Assembly (NCBI RefSeq): GCF_030523955.1
Contig: NZ_JAUNHL010000006.1
Location: forward strand, 1,833-65,832
Direction of reading: 5' to 3'
DNA length: 64,000 nt
Source of the DNA: Neisseria sp.
Lineage (GTDB): Bacteria > Pseudomonadota > Gammaproteobacteria > Burkholderiales > Neisseriaceae
Of the stretch, positions 1 through 64,000 are shown one piece after another. The translations under genes and the position numbers were made by a program. Under the pieces are notes generated by a model, which made no database searches, was not told the origin of the DNA, and was given only the letters and a program-made list of their open reading frames with translations. Positions within the stretch are counted from its first letter, which is position 1. Each line of letters starts with the position of its first letter.

Positions 1-674
1 GCGGCGCCGGCCACCGTTTGCAGGCGCACGCGCGCCACAGAGATGCCCATGCTCACGGCGGTGTCTTCGCCCAGCATCAGAATATCCAGCTTTCTGCCCG
101 CGCCCAACAGCAGCGCCAAACCCGCCAGCATCGCGCCTGCGGCATAAGCGGGTGGCGTAAAACCCGCTTCGGCCAAGCTGCCCGACAACCAAACGGTGGC
201 GCTGCGCAACACCAAATCGTCGGACAAAAACAGAATCAGGCTCACCAGCGCCGCCGAAAACGCGCTCAACACAAAACCCAACACCAGCAAACCCAGCGTG
301 CCGCCGCCCAGCAGCTTATGCGCCGCCAGAATCAACAGGCACATCGCCAGCGCACCGGCAAACGCCGCCAGCGGCACGCCGATGCCGCCGATGCCGAAAG
401 CCAGCACGCAGATCACGCCCAAGGCCGCGCCGCCGGAGGTGCCGATCAGGCTGGGGTCGGCCAGCGGGTTTTCAAACAGCGCCTGCAAAGCCGCCCCCGC
501 CGCCGCCAGCGCCGCGCCGACCAGCAACGCCGTCCACACGCGCGGCAGGCGGATGGCGCGCACGGTTTCGTCCGCTTGGTGCGGCATTTGCCATTCGCCG
601 AAACCGATGCCGGTGCAAAACCAGATTAAGGCGGCGGTGGCGGTTAAAGCGAGCATCAAGGGAACGGGTTTCAT
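1..674 (-). CDS. hmuU: FecCD-family ABC transporter permease, HmuU/BtuC-like; the N-terminal 224 aa are in the window and the C-terminus runs off the 5' edge
   Basis: Reverse-strand translation from the ATG at 674..672 reads MKPVPLMLALTATAALIWFC...AIRLPRVWTALLVGAALAAAGAALQALFENPLADPSLIGTSGGAALGV. The RLPRV motif and TM pattern are those of FecCD permeases. It lies downstream of hmuT and hemS in a heme locus. Confidence 0.7.
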   Translation of the reverse strand, partial: MKPVPLMLALTATAALIWFCTGIGFGEWQMPHQADETVRAIRLPRVWTALLVGAALAAAGAALQALFENPLADPSLIGTSGGAALGVICVLAFGIGGIGVPLAAFAGALAMCLLILAAHKLLGGGTLGLLVLGFVLSAFSAALVSLILFLSDDLVLRSATVWLSGSLAEAGFTPPAYAAGAMLAGLALLLGAGRKLDILMLGEDTAVSMGISVARVRLQTVAGA

Positions 675-707
675 GATATTGAAATAATGGGTAAATAGCG
701 GATTAAC

Positions 708-745
708 AGGCCGTCTGAATACCTTCGACAGGGTCTTCAGACGGC
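708..745. repeat. Canonical-dialect DUS inverted pair (aggccgtctgaa ... ttcagacggcct) forming a hairpin between hmuT and hmuU; a Correia TIR fragment (atagcggattaac) is adjacent
   Basis: Perfect inverted 12-mers containing GCCGTCTGAA, separated by a 16-nt loop. Confidence 0.7.
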
Positions 746-924
746 CTGGAACCTTTGCCAAATTCCTTGCAACATCTTCAAACCCCTACGTCATGCTCAG
801 GCTTGACCCGGGCATCTTTTGGTTTCAAAAGAAATATACAGATACTCGGGTTGGGCACGAGTATGACGGGATAAAAACATTTTCAGGGGGGAGGCGCCTT
901 TTTATAAAGCTCCCGGCCTGATGG

Positions 925-1713
925 TTATTTGGCCAAATCATGCAGTTTTCTCACCACTTGCGGCGTATCCAAACCGTAGCGGAACATATCGTTGGCCGGC
1001 CACAGGTAAATTCTGCCGTTTTTGGCGGCGGGGCTGGCGGCCACTTCGGGGCGCGCGGCAAACTGTTGCACGCCGCCGATAACTTTGGCGTTGTGGCCGG
1101 CAATCACAATCACATCGGGTTTGGCGGCCAGCCACGCTTCGCGGTTGAGCGGTTTCATGCCGTCGATATGGGCGGCGGCGTTGGTGCCGCCGGCGCGGCG
1201 GATGATTTCGTCGGCGGCGGTGTTGCGCCCCGCCGCAATGCGGCCGTCGTAGCTGAACAGATAACGCTTGCCGCTGGCGGGCTGTTGTTTCATTTCGGCC
1301 TGCCATTTGTTTGCCAGCGCATCGGCTTGGGCGGTTTTGTTAACCAGCCTGCCCAGCGTGCGGATGCTTTGCGGATAGGCGGCGATGCTGTCGTTTGGCG
1401 CAATGTTGACGGCGCGGATGCCGGCGTTTTTCAGGCGCTCATAAATCGCGGCGGGCTGCACCATCCACGAACCGACCGCCAAATCGGGTTTGGCGGCGAT
1501 AATCGGTTCGACCGAGAGCTGGCGGTAAATGCCTATACTCGGTTTGTTTTTCAGCGCGGGATTCTGATTGGTTTGGTCGCGGGCAACGATTTCGCCGGCC
1601 GCGCCCAGCGCCACGGCAATATCGGCCACATCGGGCGACAGCACCACAATGCGCTGTGCCTGCGCGGTTTGCAGGGCGGCAAGTAAAACGGCGGCGAGCA
1701 AGTATTTTTTCAT
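925..1713 (-). CDS. hmuT: Periplasmic heme/hemin-binding protein of an ABC transporter (HmuT/TroA class)
   Basis: The ORF is trimmed to the internal ATG at 1713 (MKKYLLAAVLLAALQTAQA signal peptide). It is 263 aa with a class III SBP fold pattern and sits in the heme locus; the longer N-terminal extension in the ORF track translates repeat DNA. Confidence 0.65.
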   Translation of the reverse strand: MKKYLLAAVLLAALQTAQAQRIVVLSPDVADIAVALGAAGEIVARDQTNQNPALKNKPSIGIYRQLSVEPIIAAKPDLAVGSWMVQPAAIYERLKNAGIRAVNIAPNDSIAAYPQSIRTLGRLVNKTAQADALANKWQAEMKQQPASGKRYLFSYDGRIAAGRNTAADEIIRRAGGTNAAAHIDGMKPLNREAWLAAKPDVIVIAGHNAKVIGGVQQFAARPEVAASPAAKNGRIYLWPANDMFRYGLDTPQVVRKLHDLAK

Positions 1714-1724
1714 GGCTATGCTTT

Positions 1725-2140
1725 CCTTTGCTTTTTTCAGACAGGCATGTCCGGTGCAAAGGCCTGTCTGAAAACTTGTTACGTATCGGTTGTTTTGGCG
1801 GCGCGGGGAGACAAATCTGAGATTTGTTGCCCTCTCCCTAGCCCTCCCCCGCGGGGGAGGGAATAAGGTTGCTGGAATAGCAGCCGTATTTGCTAATTTC
1901 GGCAATCCGTTCTTTTTTCAGACAGGCATGTTCGGTGCAAAGGCCTGTCTGAAAGCTTGTTACGTATCGGTTGTTTTGGCGGCGCAGGAAAATAGACCTG
2001 CGGTTTGTTGCTCGCTTCCTAGTCCCCACAGGGTAGGGAATGGATTGTTGGAAACCGCCATGCATGATTGATTATTCAGCAACCTGTTCCCTCCCCCGTG
2101 GGGGAGGGCTAGGGAGAGGGCAGTAAGCCGCAGGCTTACC
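1725..2140. repeat. NIME-like repeat block: two diverged tandem ~190-bp units, each opening with a DUS hairpin, bracketed by 20-bp palindromes (ccctcccccgcgggggagggaat / ttccctcccccgtgggggaggg)
   Basis: 1725-1800 and 1913-1988 are near-identical (ttttttcagacaggcatgtYcggtgcaaaggcctgtctgaaaRcttgttacgtatcggttgttttggcggcgc). dRS3-like GGGAAT/ATTCCC ends sit at 1846-1871 and 2083-2108. Confidence 0.7.
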
Positions 2141-62207: not shown

Positions 62208-62234
62208 TTTTGATGAGCTTGGTTGGAATGATAA

Positions 62235-62266
62235 ATGCCTGTCTGAAAAGTTTTTCAGACAGGCAT
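62235..62266. repeat. DUS inverted pair hairpin
   Basis: atgcctgtctgaaaag tttttcagacaggcat. Confidence 0.7.
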
Positions 62267-62294
62267 TTATCGTATTGGTTAATTATTGTGTTAA

Positions 62295-63689
62295 TCAGTT
62301 TTGTAAAGATTCCAACAGCTGTTTTTTCCAGCGCACCGCTTGTTGCAATACTTGCTCCGGCGCGGTGCCGCCCAAGTGGTTGCGGGCATTCAGGCTGCCT
62401 TCGGGTGTCAGCACCAGATAAACGTCTTCGTCTACCAAGTCGCTGAAGCCTTGTAATACGGCCAGCGGCAGATCGCTTAAATCCACACCTTGGTCATCCG
62501 CATGGCGCACGGCTTTTGCGACCACTTCATGACTGTCGCGAAACGGCATCCCTTTTTTCACCAGATAATCAGCTAAGTCGGTGGCGGTGGCAAAGCCCTG
62601 CATTACGGCGGCACGCATGTTTTCCGGTTTTACGCTCACGCCGCGCATCATATCGGCATAAATGCGCAAAGTATCGATTAGGGTGTCAACGGTATCGAAC
62701 AGCGGCTCTTTATCTTCCTGATTATCTTTGTTATAAGCCAAAGGCTGGGATTTCATCAGCATAATCAAGCCGGTAAGGTGGCCGATAACCCTGCCGGACT
62801 TGCCGCGTACCAATTCGGGCACATCGGGATTTTTCTTCTGCGGCATGATGGACGAGCCGGTGCAGAAGCGGTCGGCAATATCGATAAAACCGAAACGCGG
62901 GCTCATCCACAAAATCAATTCTTCGCTCAGCCGGCTCAGGTGTACCATCAGTAAAGAGGCGGCAGCTGTAAATTCAATGGCAAAATCACGGTCGGATACG
63001 GCATCGAGCGAGTTTTGGCAGATTTGTTCGAAGCCCAGCAATTCGGCGGTTACTTCGCGGCGGATGGGGTAGGTAGTACCGGCCAGTGCGGCAGCGCCCA
63101 AAGGCATGCGGTTAACCCGTTTACGGCAGTCGGCCATGCGTTCGTCGTCACGCCCTAACATTTCGACATAAGCGAGCATATGGTGGCCGAAGCTCACCGG
63201 CTGGGCGACCTGAAGATGGGTAAAGCCCGGCATTACCACATCGGCGTTGGCTTCGGCCAATTCTACCAGCGCCAGTTGCAGCGACTGGATCAGCAAGCGG
63301 ATTTGGCTGATTTCATCGCGCAGCCACAAGCGGATATCGGTAGCGACTTGGTCGTTGCGGCTGCGGCCGGTGTGCAGGCGTTTTCCGGCGTCGCCGATTT
63401 TATCGGTCAGCCGTTTTTCTATGTTCATGTGGACGTCTTCCAAATCGAGCGACCACTCTATACGGCCGTTTTCGATGTCGGAAAGAATTTCGGCCATGCC
63501 TTGTTGTATGGCGGCAACATCGGCAGCGCTCAATACGCCCGCTTGTTCCAGCATCTCGGCATGTGCCAGCGAGCCTTGGATATCCCACTTTGCAAGCCGT
63601 TTGTCGAAATCAATGGAGCCGGTATATTTTTTTACTAATTCTGACACAGGTTCGTTAAAACGACCCGACCAAGTTTTGCTATCATTCAT
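62295..63689 (-). CDS. argH: Argininosuccinate lyase
   Basis: 464 aa containing the fumarate-lyase signature region. Confidence 0.9.
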
Positions 63690-63764
63690 ATTAAAAATAA
63701 TCTTTCTCGCATATAATATTAACTAACGTCACCAAATAATTTTTTAACGCAGGTTGTTTTACTC

Positions 63765-64000
63765 ATGCCCATTATACGTCAAATCATGTCTAAATTTGCT
63801 GTACCCGATATGCGCAATTTGGGAACCCAAGTGCGCCTTATTGTTATCAGCATTTTCTATGGTTTGTTCCTGCCGCTGATTAGCGATTCGGATGTCAGCT
63901 ATTGGACCCAAGTTTACCGCACCGCCAGCTGGGGCGCGCCGACCTTGTTGCTCATTATGTTAACCGGTTATGTGTTCAGCCAATATGCAACCAAACTGGA
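63765..64000 (+). CDS. Membrane protein, N-terminal fragment continuing beyond the window
   Basis: The ATG at 63765 opens MPIIRQIMSKFAVPDMRNLGTQVRLIVISIFYGLFLPLI..., with two predicted TM segments. No stop falls in the window. Confidence 0.35.
   Translation, partial: MPIIRQIMSKFAVPDMRNLGTQVRLIVISIFYGLFLPLISDSDVSYWTQVYRTASWGAPTLLLIMLTGYVFSQYATKL

Follow-up and report, generated by a model that had tools for sequence, protein, structure and literature searches.

The 64-kb window analysed here, a stretch of 64,000 nucleotides from a Neisseria contig, contains two uptake-sequence (DUS) dialects, one of them confined to a few genes. This raises the question of whether the minority dialect marks imported DNA and, if so, which lineage donated it. 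The host is a metagenome-assembled genome (MAG) of a species known only from metagenome assemblies.

Distribution of the two dialects

The core of the wadDUS dialect, GCCTGTCTGAA, is present in 56 copies compared with 0.02 expected, and 51 of these have the full form ATGCCTGTCTGAA; TG-wadDUS number 52 in the window. With 40 of the 56 copies taken up by 20 inverted pairs, an earlier note on this DNA, which had described about 60 native copies mostly arranged as inverted-pair hairpins, was right about the pairing and somewhat high in its count. The canonical core GCCGTCTGAA occurs ten times (710+, 736-, 2176-, 3238-, 3266+, 4353-, 4539-, 52883+, 53243+ and 53707+), where shuffled sequences yield an expectation of 0.12; the same note had listed about ten copies, and each lies no more than 7 bp from the position given there. 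A detail overlooked at that time is the prefix of these copies. All ten are preceded by AG and are therefore AG-DUS (full form AGGCCGTCTGAA), whereas AT-DUS is absent from the 64-kb window.

The placement of the canonical copies is as previously described: seven are located in the hmuU-hmuT-hmuS-receptor locus, two of them within the receptor ORF, and the other three in dppD (two) and dppF (one). Altogether, five of the ten are within ORFs. Every copy lies in one of two tracts, which together make up 7.9 kb of the 64 kb. The clustering test that had been proposed for them, run here within the window, gave P = 8e-10 (about 1e-9) under a uniform placement model and P = 5e-8 with each inverted pair scored as a single event, and a Fisher test of AG-DUS against wadDUS placement gave 5e-9. 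No exact AG-DUS was found in the 56 kb of native window sequence, where one-mismatch variants of GCCGTCTGAA number only five, which is the chance level.

Mosaic structure of the heme-uptake, dpp and iscS loci

The N. dentiae-type heme-uptake tract (1..5419, minus strand) continues past the window start. It comprises, with identities assigned from gene families, hmuU (3-674, cut by the window edge), hmuT (925-1722), hmuS/ChuX-HutX (2177-3217) and a TonB-dependent heme receptor (3290-5479), the last from about codon 22 onward. Nucleotide identity to the complete N. dentiae genome CP059570 is 98.4% (1-1778) and 97.5% (2168-5419), ranging from 95 to 99% in a sliding comparison, and dS is 0.03-0.11. 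The far end of the tract, seen in conspecific contig L035, lies about 40 bp before the hmuV stop. At the near end, receptor codons 1-22 are 55% identical to N. dentiae (dS 2.2) versus 97% for the remaining gene. The resident receptor promoter and signal-peptide codons (5420..5665, minus strand, with a wadDUS at 5625) form the right-hand recombination junction, and this stretch is 96.7% shared with conspecific contigs L035 and L037. The AG-DUS sites of the tract are likewise found in the N. dentiae clade. The inverted pair in the hmuU-hmuT gap (710..745) is identical in N. dentiae (L042) and the related genomes L001 and L002, and the copy overlapping the 3' end and stop codon of hmuS (2176..2185, minus strand) is kept in the same three as well as in L035 and L037. 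The inverted pair in the receptor-hmuS gap (3238..3275) is kept across the clade and in N. musculi. Within the receptor ORF, both on the minus strand, the site at 4353..4362 is also a DUS in L035, L002 and N. musculi and has one mismatch in N. dentiae L042, and that at 4539..4548 is a DUS in L042, L001, L002 and N. musculi. A tree of hmuS and the receptor, for which N. musculi served as outgroup, places the window inside the N. dentiae clade as the sister of N. dentiae itself. Within the host species, the heme alleles of the window and L035 differ by 5% and are not mutual closest relatives, which requires either more than one import or recombination at a later time.

The gap between hmuS and hmuT is more complex. 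It contains a wadDUS-type inverted pair (1736..1772, arms ATGCCTGTCTGAA and AGGCCTGTCTGAA) that also exists in the donor clade, being identical in N. dentiae L042 and L043 and in conspecific contigs L035-L038; the equivalent in L002 pairs an AG-DUS arm with a wadDUS arm. This hairpin is the sole wadDUS inverted pair, and the sole intergenic wadDUS, in the AG-DUS loci sampled. The neighbouring 389-bp NIME-like insertion (1779..2167) is made up of a second, tandem copy of the hairpin unit (181 bp) and a 47-nt inverted-repeat element; it is strain-specific and was not found in N. dentiae, L001, L002 or L035-L038. Repeat units of its GGGGGAGGG type are also seen close to the heme loci in mucDUS species. 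The earlier suggestion that a native-dialect block was inserted here later therefore applies to the 389-bp insertion only. The hairpin, already present in N. dentiae, is no proof that the native dialect was gained after import. It shows instead that some sequence also moved, or converged, in the opposite direction, so that the history of the locus was not one single one-way event.

The N. dentiae-type dpp tract (51950..54422, plus strand) comprises dppD (52435-53433) and dppF (53433-54422) in full, together with the 3' part of dppC. Its identity is 96.9% to N. dentiae CP059570 (L039) and 96.8% to the donor-type contig L027, compared with 80% and 74% just upstream. The import thus starts within dppC, at 51,950-52,006, and is not limited to dppDF as had been proposed. 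Its boundary is also evident from dS to N. dentiae (0.72 for the 5' part of dppC, 0.15 for the 3' part, 0.17 for dppD and 0.04 for dppF) and from the informative sites (331:38 in the tract versus 241:221 upstream, P = 2e-33). All three AG-DUS are on the plus strand: those at 52883..52892 in dppD and 53707..53716 in dppF are DUS in N. dentiae L039 (at 9451 and 10275) and in L027, and that at 53243..53252 in dppD is a DUS in L039 (at 9811) with one mismatch in L027. At none of these sites do the wadDUS relatives (L028, L030 and L032 for the first site) have a DUS. The resident dialect is exemplified by a native wadDUS inverted pair in the dppA-dppB gap just upstream of the import (50418..50453), which is kept in conspecific contig L045, and by another downstream of dppF (54850..54877), whose equivalent place in L027 is occupied by AG-DUS. 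No wadDUS was found in the dpp tract, nor in N. dentiae within 21 kb around dpp.

A third N. dentiae-type tract covers essentially the whole of iscS (about 42075..43237, minus strand) and contains no DUS of either dialect. iscS is 97-100% identical to N. dentiae L042 and to L025, versus 70% for the adjacent iscR; dS is 0.11 for iscS compared with 2.3 for iscR and 0.99 for iscU, and informative sites split 78:9 in iscS as opposed to 27:115 in iscR (P = 4e-27). Canonical DUS, which had been proposed as a marker of import, thus serve this purpose for the heme and dpp clusters and fail as a full marker, since iscS was imported without them.

Donor, direction and route of entry

That both canonical-DUS clusters are imports from a GCCGTCTGAA-dialect lineage, as the earlier note had argued, is borne out by the 97-98% identity of the tracts to N. 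dentiae, compared with only 70-85% for the native flanks, by orthologous DUS sites and by sharp breakpoints within genes. In the N. dentiae type genome, nine of the ten AG-DUS sites match a DUS exactly, and the tenth does so in other genomes of the clade. The N. dentiae genome CP059570 is a pure AG-DUS genome, with 25 and 29 AG-DUS per 21 kb at the two loci, and AG-DUS is also the dialect of the related genomes L001, L002, L025 and N. musculi. The native Ppk of the host is only 77% identical (amino acids) to that of L001, the genome whose heme receptor matches at 93%. A donor from the N. meningitidis/N. lactamica group, whose dialect is AT-DUS, had been suggested. The best genome matches are, however, N. 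dentiae and its close relatives (93-94% at the amino acid level); all others reach at most 86%, N. musculi being nearest, and human-associated species only 63-68%. The 10-mer core GCCGTCTGAA is common to AT-DUS and AG-DUS (PMC3630211), but the prefix is AG in ten of ten copies and AT in none, tract GC is 58-60%, and the single N. lactamica-labelled match reaches 67% at the protein level on a mucDUS-dominated contig. An AT-DUS donor has next to no probability and is refuted by the AG prefix together with the 97-98% match to N. dentiae.

We consider it very probable that three segments of a wadDUS host (the heme operon, distal dpp and iscS) were overwritten by N. dentiae-clade DNA, with the AG-DUS as passengers. 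TG-wadDUS would be the resident uptake sequence of this uncultured, undescribed Neisseria, and homologous recombination with DNA of the AG-DUS clade would have replaced nearly the whole heme operon, from receptor codon ~22 to the hmuV 3' end (window 1-5419 being most of it), the distal 2.5 kb of the dpp operon from mid-dppC through dppF (51,950-54,422), and iscS (about 42,075-43,237). The ten AG-DUS would have arrived with this DNA, at sites that were already AG-DUS in the donor clade. The breakpoints lie within genes, with in-frame junctions in the receptor signal-peptide region and in dppC, and this position indicates allelic replacement.

An assembly chimera, in which reads of a wadDUS species were joined to reads of an N. 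dentiae-like species that co-occurs with it, would fit the position of the heme tract near the end of the 66,783-bp MAG contig, the conservation of dpp and iscS, where assembly paths could switch, and the exact HmuS, IscS and DppC proteins, which are on record on this contig alone or nowhere. However, the heme locus combines AG-DUS with wadDUS on both sides in four independent assemblies (ENA, JGI, Logan), and contig L037 continues for 2.8 kb into the neighbouring genes that the window has there (97.6% identity). The stretch from dppA to dppF is collinear in contig L045 (97.5%), where all three AG-DUS and the native wadDUS pair recur; L044 reaches 5 kb further on the downstream side, and two independent assemblies (L050 and L051) have native iscR adjoining N. 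dentiae-type iscS. With the same mosaics and wadDUS flanks in contigs from other samples (L035-L038, L044-L049, L050, L051), a chimera is effectively refuted and retains scarcely any probability. It is just as hard to credit that the clusters are old and native, left from a time when the host lineage used AG-DUS and kept where a one-base insertion would break the frame. One inserted T is indeed all that separates wadDUS from the canonical core (PMC3630211), half of the AG-DUS are within ORFs, and at one orthologous intergenic site the window has a wadDUS in place of the AG-DUS pair of AG-DUS relatives. Relics should be scattered, yet the native 56 kb hold none and near-matches only at chance level; moreover, two intergenic AG-DUS pairs persist in the heme tract and the three dpp sites are without DUS in wadDUS relatives. 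When tract and flank were compared for equal divergence from N. dentiae, the two differed (dS 0.03-0.17 in the tracts versus 0.5-2.3 in neighbouring genes), and the low values in the tracts indicate recent shared ancestry and not retention.

Export of the tracts from the wadDUS species to N. dentiae is very improbable, although the hmuS-hmuT hairpin suggests some flow toward N. dentiae. N. dentiae, L001, L025 and N. musculi all have the heme locus beside the same neighbours (isc operon side), and it diverges in step with these species (identity to N. musculi, for instance, is 84%); the AG-DUS density of the tracts, about 1.3 per kb, is typical of the donor. Transfer into the wadDUS species, with the N. 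dentiae clade as source, appears the likelier direction on these comparisons, because the tract alleles nest inside the AG-DUS clade, within the diversity of N. dentiae, with clade-typical synteny, and several DUS sites are common to N. musculi. Entry was probably by natural transformation, since the tracts are short (1.2-6 kb), have homologous intragenic endpoints and neither contain nor adjoin integrase, transposase or phage genes. Such tracts are the usual footprint of transformation in Neisseria. Imports from the N. dentiae clade could also have entered by vesicles, transduction or conjugative mobilisation, followed by homologous recombination. The iscS tract has no DUS and the dpp tract no wadDUS, and therefore the host's preferred signal was not needed; this route is nevertheless unlikely given the form of the tracts, and DUS preference is a bias and no absolute requirement (PMC3630211).

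Relation to known interspecies transfers

A comparable case is the 7-kb folP region of the AG-DUS species N. subflava ATCC 19243, which carries mucDUS (Qvarnström and Swedberg, 2006, as discussed in Frye et al., 2013, PMC3630211). According to that discussion, a kilobase-scale segment with the dialect of another group and DUS positions matching the presumed donor was there, too, read as interspecies acquisition. Here, by contrast, the recipient is a wadDUS species and the donor belongs to the AG-DUS N. dentiae clade, and in-place allelic replacements with intragenic breakpoints are backed by dS contrasts and independent assemblies. The Neisseria mosaic genes from interspecies transformation, penA and argF/recA/glnA (papers of Spratt, Bowler, Zhou and Smith cited in PMC3630211), similarly have short homologous tracts that replace a gene wholly or partly with sharp breakpoints. 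As cited there, they arose mostly among mutually compatible AT-, AG- or muc-DUS species, whereas the dialects involved here differ by a core insertion and the recipient is uncultured. DUS-dialect mapping has been used to locate foreign DNA in Neisseriaceae genomes (Hughes-Games et al., 2020, PMC7371117), and in both studies an atypical local dialect or density flags horizontally acquired DNA; there it concerned integrative conjugative elements, here core-gene replacements in tracts without mobility genes. Haemophilus uptake signal sequences in Neisseria genes, which trace intergeneric transfer (Kroll et al., 1998, as cited in PMC3630211), also represent a passenger foreign sequence that betrays the donor lineage, although that transfer was between families and the present one is within a genus, between dialects.

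The AG-DUS dialect is an incomplete marker, and one of the three imports is unmarked. The 14% of imported sequence in the window is no unbiased rate, as the window was chosen for this feature. The mosaic is a clean but ordinary case of interspecies recombination. Since the AG-DUS copies are most probably passengers, their clustering would report the ancestry of the tracts and not a second functional dialect.

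Uptake-sequence dialects and the host species

In exact searches, the 11-mer core GCCTGTCTGAA occurs 56 times in the window (0.02 copies expected) and GCCGTCTGAA ten times (0.12 expected). The former extends to the full ATGCCTGTCTGAA in 51 of the 56 copies, is a TG-wadDUS (TGCCTGTCTGAA) in 52, and carries an AG prefix in four; 40 copies are arranged as 20 inverted pairs. With 52 TG-wadDUS in 64 kb, the window displays the strong over-representation that is a trait of TG-wadDUS genomes, which contain about one copy per kb, often as inverted pairs 3' of genes (Frye et al., 2013; PMC3630211). 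The wadDUS differs from the AT-DUS by one extra T, placed behind position +3 (PMC3630211).

All ten copies of GCCGTCTGAA are preceded by AG and thus represent the AG-DUS dialect; the AT-DUS (ATGCCGTCTGAA) has no copy in the whole 64-kb window. Seven AG-DUS are located in the heme locus (710+, 736-, 2176-, 3238-, 3266+, 4353-, and 4539-) and three in the dpp operon (52883+, 53243+, and 53707+). All of them lie inside two stretches totalling 7.9 kb, and none occurs in the remaining 56 kb. Under uniform placement, such clustering has a probability of P = 8e-10, or of P = 5e-8 if pairs are treated as single events. An earlier note had described two dialects and clustered canonical copies accurately, with the AG prefix on all of these copies as its important omission.

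Hybrid copies with a wadDUS core and an AG prefix (AGGCCTGTCTGAA) are found at 1762, 1943, 15653, and 46614. Those at 1762 and 1943 form arms of hairpins within the heme tract, and the copies at 15653 and, inside ppk, at 46614 lie within putative ORFs of native sequence. At an intergenic site (40312), the orthologous loci of a Neisseria sp. MAG (L001), of an N. dentiae MAG (L025), and of L016 carry an AG-DUS inverted pair; the window has a wadDUS at the first arm, and its next wadDUS (40604) is about 290 bp away, beyond a segment with a 139-aa ORF (40182-40601) that is absent from the relatives. This site illustrates in-place dialect turnover.

The window stems from a 66,783-bp contig of an assembly annotated as 'MAG: Neisseria sp.' (proteins MDO4247765-818). 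This source was traced via protein clusters, as exact matching of the receptor, of an 872-aa ORF, and of DppC gave no hit, probably owing to different start codons or strains. Its native Ppk shares at most 78% amino acid identity with any named species. The host is not N. wadsworthii, to whose Ppk this protein is only 76% identical, and the low identities to all named species indicate an undescribed species that uses the wadDUS dialect known from N. wadsworthii. Metagenome contigs of a related wadDUS species (L028-L032) are syntenic with the window from iscS to dppF at 81-88% identity. One of them, L028, contains three copies of GCCGTCTGAA (18549 and 20249-20280) near a KefB-type gene and a pirin gene, which may represent a separate cross-dialect import into that species.

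Heme, dpp, and iscS tracts of N. dentiae type

The heme locus comprises a FecCD-type permease (hmuU; 3-674, minus strand, truncated by the window edge), a periplasmic binding protein (hmuT; 925-1722), a ChuX/HutX-HemS protein (hmuS; 2177-3217), and a TonB-dependent heme receptor (3290-5479); gene names here and in the dpp operon were confirmed by NCBIfam scans. When one genome per species was scanned, the best amino acid matches of the receptor were found in L001 (93%), in two contigs of the N. dentiae MAG (L002, 94%; L025, 86% over the first 179 residues), and in N. musculi (83%), and all other matches were at or below 70%. The three best-matching genomes use AG-DUS and are essentially devoid of wadDUS. 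A native wadDUS-type heme operon was not returned by this one-genome-per-species receptor scan.

The HmuS protein cluster led to the complete genome of N. dentiae (CP059570), which is 98.4% identical to the window at 1-1778 and 97.5% identical at 2168-5419. Nucleotide identity and dS to N. dentiae are 98.7% and 0.03 for the available part of hmuU, 98.1% and 0.06 for hmuT, 98.3% and 0.05 for hmuS, and 97.1% and 0.11 for the receptor gene after codon 22. The first 22 codons of the receptor gene are only 55% identical (dS 2.2), which places the breakpoint at about 5410-5420. These codons and the promoter, with a wadDUS at 5625, are common to contigs from other samples that are conspecific with the host. 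As the 5' end of the gene is of the conspecific type and the rest of N. dentiae type, the junction was formed in-frame within a pre-existing homologous receptor gene. In L035, one of the conspecific contigs, the far junction precedes the hmuV stop codon by about 40 bp. The heme event is an allelic replacement of about 6 kb, with no insertion of an island.

A site-by-site alignment of the ten AG-DUS with the N. dentiae type genome (loci L042 and L039) found an exact DUS at nine sites. In the heme locus these are six of the seven sites; the seventh (4353) is one mismatch off in N. dentiae and an exact DUS in L035, L002, and N. musculi. Several of the heme-tract sites are DUS in N. musculi, too. 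A neighbour-joining tree of hmuS and the receptor gene, with N. musculi as its outgroup, pairs the window with N. dentiae as sister, nested within L002 and L001.

The heme alleles of the host species differ more from each other than their flanks do: the window and L035 are 95% identical in the tract (about 5% different) and 97.6% identical in the flanks (about 2.4% different). The window allele is also nearer to N. dentiae than to the L035 allele, and the two host alleles are not sisters. Because of this excess divergence and the non-sister relationship, the data point to repeated exchange of the heme locus in the host species. The 250-bp hmuT-hmuU spacer that holds an AG-DUS pair is missing from L035.

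In the dpp operon (dppA to dppF, 48,726-54,422, plus strand), DppD has its best match (98% amino acid identity) on a 3.1-kb AG-DUS contig (L027). Sliding identity to this contig rises from 72-80% to 96-98% between 51,950 and 52,006, within dppC. From 51,950 to 54,290 the window is 96.9% identical to N. dentiae (L039), and the likeness runs on to the dppF stop codon at 54,422; dppA, dppB, and the 5' part of dppC upstream of the tract are 80% identical. Accordingly, dS to N. dentiae is 0.94 for dppA, 0.70 for dppB, and 0.72 for the 5' part of dppC, as against 0.15 for its 3' part, 0.17 for dppD, and 0.04 for dppF. Informative sites, at which the window matches either the donor type or a wadDUS relative, are split 331:38 in the tract and 241:221 upstream of it (Fisher test, P = 2e-33). 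The three AG-DUS occupy the same sites in N. dentiae, and the wadDUS relatives have no DUS there. Thus, the import is not confined to dppD and dppF as had been proposed, but starts upstream of dppD in the middle of dppC. Between host strains the dpp tract is 97.7% identical and its flanks 97.1%, consistent with a single older import. The sister contig L028 proved uninformative on direction as a reference for dppA and dppB, since the window is simply divergent there, with about 80% identity to both L028 and N. dentiae. Relatives of the dpp operon are patchy in the DppD match list: beyond unnamed Neisseria MAGs, the best matches among named species are N. leonii and Moraxella nasovis, each at 83%, followed by Psychrobacter species at about 75%. 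This pattern is a hint that the operon has been transferred more widely.

A third tract surfaced as an outlier in the dS comparison: iscS has a dS of 0.11 and 96.9% identity to N. dentiae, whereas its neighbours reach 70% and 2.3 (iscR), 85% and 0.99 (iscU), and 90% and 0.53 (iscA). At about 42,075-43,237, the window matches N. dentiae (L042, L025) with 97-100% identity and wadDUS relatives with 85-94%. The adjoining iscR shows the reverse pattern, and informative sites are split 78:9 in iscS and 27:115 in iscR (P = 4e-27). The iscS tract contains neither AG-DUS nor wadDUS, so that the dialect tag uncovers two of the N. dentiae-type imports, of which there are at least three. Together the three cover about 14% of the window, a fraction that is not an unbiased rate because the window was picked for this feature. 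Protein clusters at 90% identity were an unreliable survey for genes of N. dentiae type: the IscS cluster contained only IscS itself, despite identity of about 98% to the N. dentiae protein.

Overall, the tracts are 97-98% identical to N. dentiae with dS of 0.03-0.17, and the flanks 70-85% identical with dS of 0.5-2.3. This contrast and the sharp breakpoints, found in dppC and the receptor gene and complemented by the informative-site tests, bear out the import of the heme and dpp clusters that the earlier note had suggested.

The hmuS-hmuT hairpin and small repeat elements

A wadDUS-type hairpin between hmuS and hmuT (1736-1772) recurs base for base in N. dentiae (L042, 11065-11101) and in the conspecific contigs. 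Its counterpart in L002 (about 2930-2970) is a hybrid of one AG-DUS and one wadDUS arm. In the approximately 100 kb of loci sampled from AG-DUS genomes, this hairpin is the sole wadDUS inverted pair and the sole intergenic wadDUS. The other exact wadDUS 11-mers in these loci are confined to a single site inside hmuS, which L001 and L002 share and which looks like a chance variant of the coding sequence. The native-dialect sequence between hmuS and hmuT had previously been taken as a sign of later local insertion. As the hairpin is already present in N. dentiae, it offers no evidence of 'nativisation' after import, and local insertion holds true only of a strain-specific block of 389 bp (1779-2167). 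This block, made up of the hairpin unit copied in tandem (181 bp) and of a 47-nt inverted-repeat element, is absent from N. dentiae and from every conspecific contig compared. The 47-nt inverted repeats contain CCCTCCCCCGCGGGGGAGGGAA, and similar units are found near the heme loci of mucDUS species. In neisserial intergenic mosaic elements (NIMEs), inverted repeats of the dRS3 type (ATTCCC-N8-GGGAAT) enclose the repeat units; an exact dRS3 consensus was not seen in the block. The occurrence of the hairpin in the donor suggests an earlier flow in the opposite direction, into N. dentiae, and the hairpin may have helped a wadDUS recipient to take up the heme operon.

Other small elements are scattered over the window. 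Correia-like miniature elements, whose terminal inverted repeats are of the TATAGCGGATTAAC type, are located at 5663-5821, 46177-46284, and 60430-60535. The first of these, just upstream of the receptor promoter, is missing from the conspecific contigs L035-L038 and is thus a polymorphic insertion. A 143-bp inverted-repeat element with the ends GAGACCTTTGCAAAACCCCC occurs at 59651-59793 and also in N. dentiae (L039, 4789-4949) and the conspecific contig L037 (2872-3016); copies of the host and of N. dentiae-clade genomes are 91-94% identical. L036 and L037 have a copy inserted in the interval from the efflux gene to the receptor promoter, a position at which the window lacks the element.

Origin of the mosaic and the dialect barrier

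Chimerism was tested, because the sequence derives from a MAG in which the heme tract is located at the end of a contig. An assembly chimera is ruled out by the same mosaics in contigs from other samples (L035-L038, L044-L049, L050, and L051). Four independent assemblies (ENA ERZ795113, ENA ERZ27282809, JGI 3300008067, and Logan SRR5997551) contain the heme operon with its AG-DUS between wadDUS flanks, and L037 runs on, with 97.6% identity, into the outer-membrane efflux and PALP genes that are its neighbours in the window as well. The three dpp AG-DUS and the native wadDUS pair recur in L045, which is 97.5% identical from dppA through dppF, L044 reaches 5 kb downstream of dpp, and in L050 and L051 a native, 100% identical iscR adjoins an iscS of N. 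dentiae type. The mosaics are real and common to the host species.

The AG-DUS could be old relics frozen in ORFs, where the one-base insertion leading to a wadDUS would shift the reading frame. This explanation fails, because no AG-DUS exists outside the tracts, one-mismatch variants of the 10-mer number only five in 56 kb (near chance by estimate), and the dS contrast indicates recent common ancestry. A donor with AT-DUS, such as N. meningitidis, N. gonorrhoeae, or the N. lactamica group, is excluded by the AG prefix on all ten copies and the lack of AT-DUS; the best-match check, which according to the earlier note should lead to species of the N. meningitidis/N. lactamica type, led to the N. 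dentiae clade. Reverse transfer, from a wadDUS species into N. dentiae, is unlikely: in N. dentiae, L001, L025, and N. musculi, the heme locus shows the synteny and the divergence typical of the clade. Neither is a genomic island or ICE involved, as the tracts hold only hmu, dpp, and iscS genes and their junctions are in-frame within homologous genes. GC content was of no use as a marker of import, native wadDUS-bearing regions (6-13 kb, 22-25 kb, and 55-60 kb) being as GC-rich as the tracts.

The three tracts are homologous replacements of N. dentiae-clade origin, with intragenic junctions and with donor DUS carried along as passengers. Given tracts of 1.2-6 kb with homologous ends and without mobility genes, we infer entry by natural transformation: DNA of the N. 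dentiae clade would be taken up in a ComP-dependent manner and then recombined by RecA. Mosaic genes formed by interspecies transformation are classical in Neisseria. The uptake tests of Frye et al. covered dialect pairs other than those with wadDUS (PMC3630211). It is conceivable, if rather doubtful, that the wadDUS/AG-DUS barrier is leaky in both directions at particular loci, with the hairpin as either a footprint of reverse flow or a cross-dialect 'passport' favouring uptake of the operon by wadDUS recipients, and with the non-sister heme alleles as products of repeated re-import at a primed locus.

Clusters of foreign-dialect DUS are already known as evidence of acquisition. A 7-kb folP region with mucDUS in N. 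subflava ATCC 19243 was likewise read as an interspecies acquisition, and AG-mucDUS counts served as such evidence in N. meningitidis MC58 (PMC3630211). DUS-dialect mapping has also been used to find integrated elements (Hughes-Games et al., 2020; PMC7371117); an island or ICE of that kind would be expected to bring an integrase or conjugation genes along with attachment sites, and to be inserted relative to an empty site. What is new here is a well-resolved example that involves the wadDUS dialect and an uncultured host.

DUS dialects are thus usable as built-in ancestry tags in Neisseria, MAGs included, and here they identify the N. dentiae clade as donor. Such tags can miss imports, as with iscS, and can mislead on the donor if the 10-mer core is read without its two prefix bases. 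Co-resident Neisseria species swap heme acquisition, a function that is exposed at the surface and interacts with the host, despite their differing dialects, in agreement with the general view of receptor loci as recombination hot spots. The host and the N. dentiae clade provide a concrete pair of lineages for gauging the strength of the barrier between wadDUS and AG-DUS.
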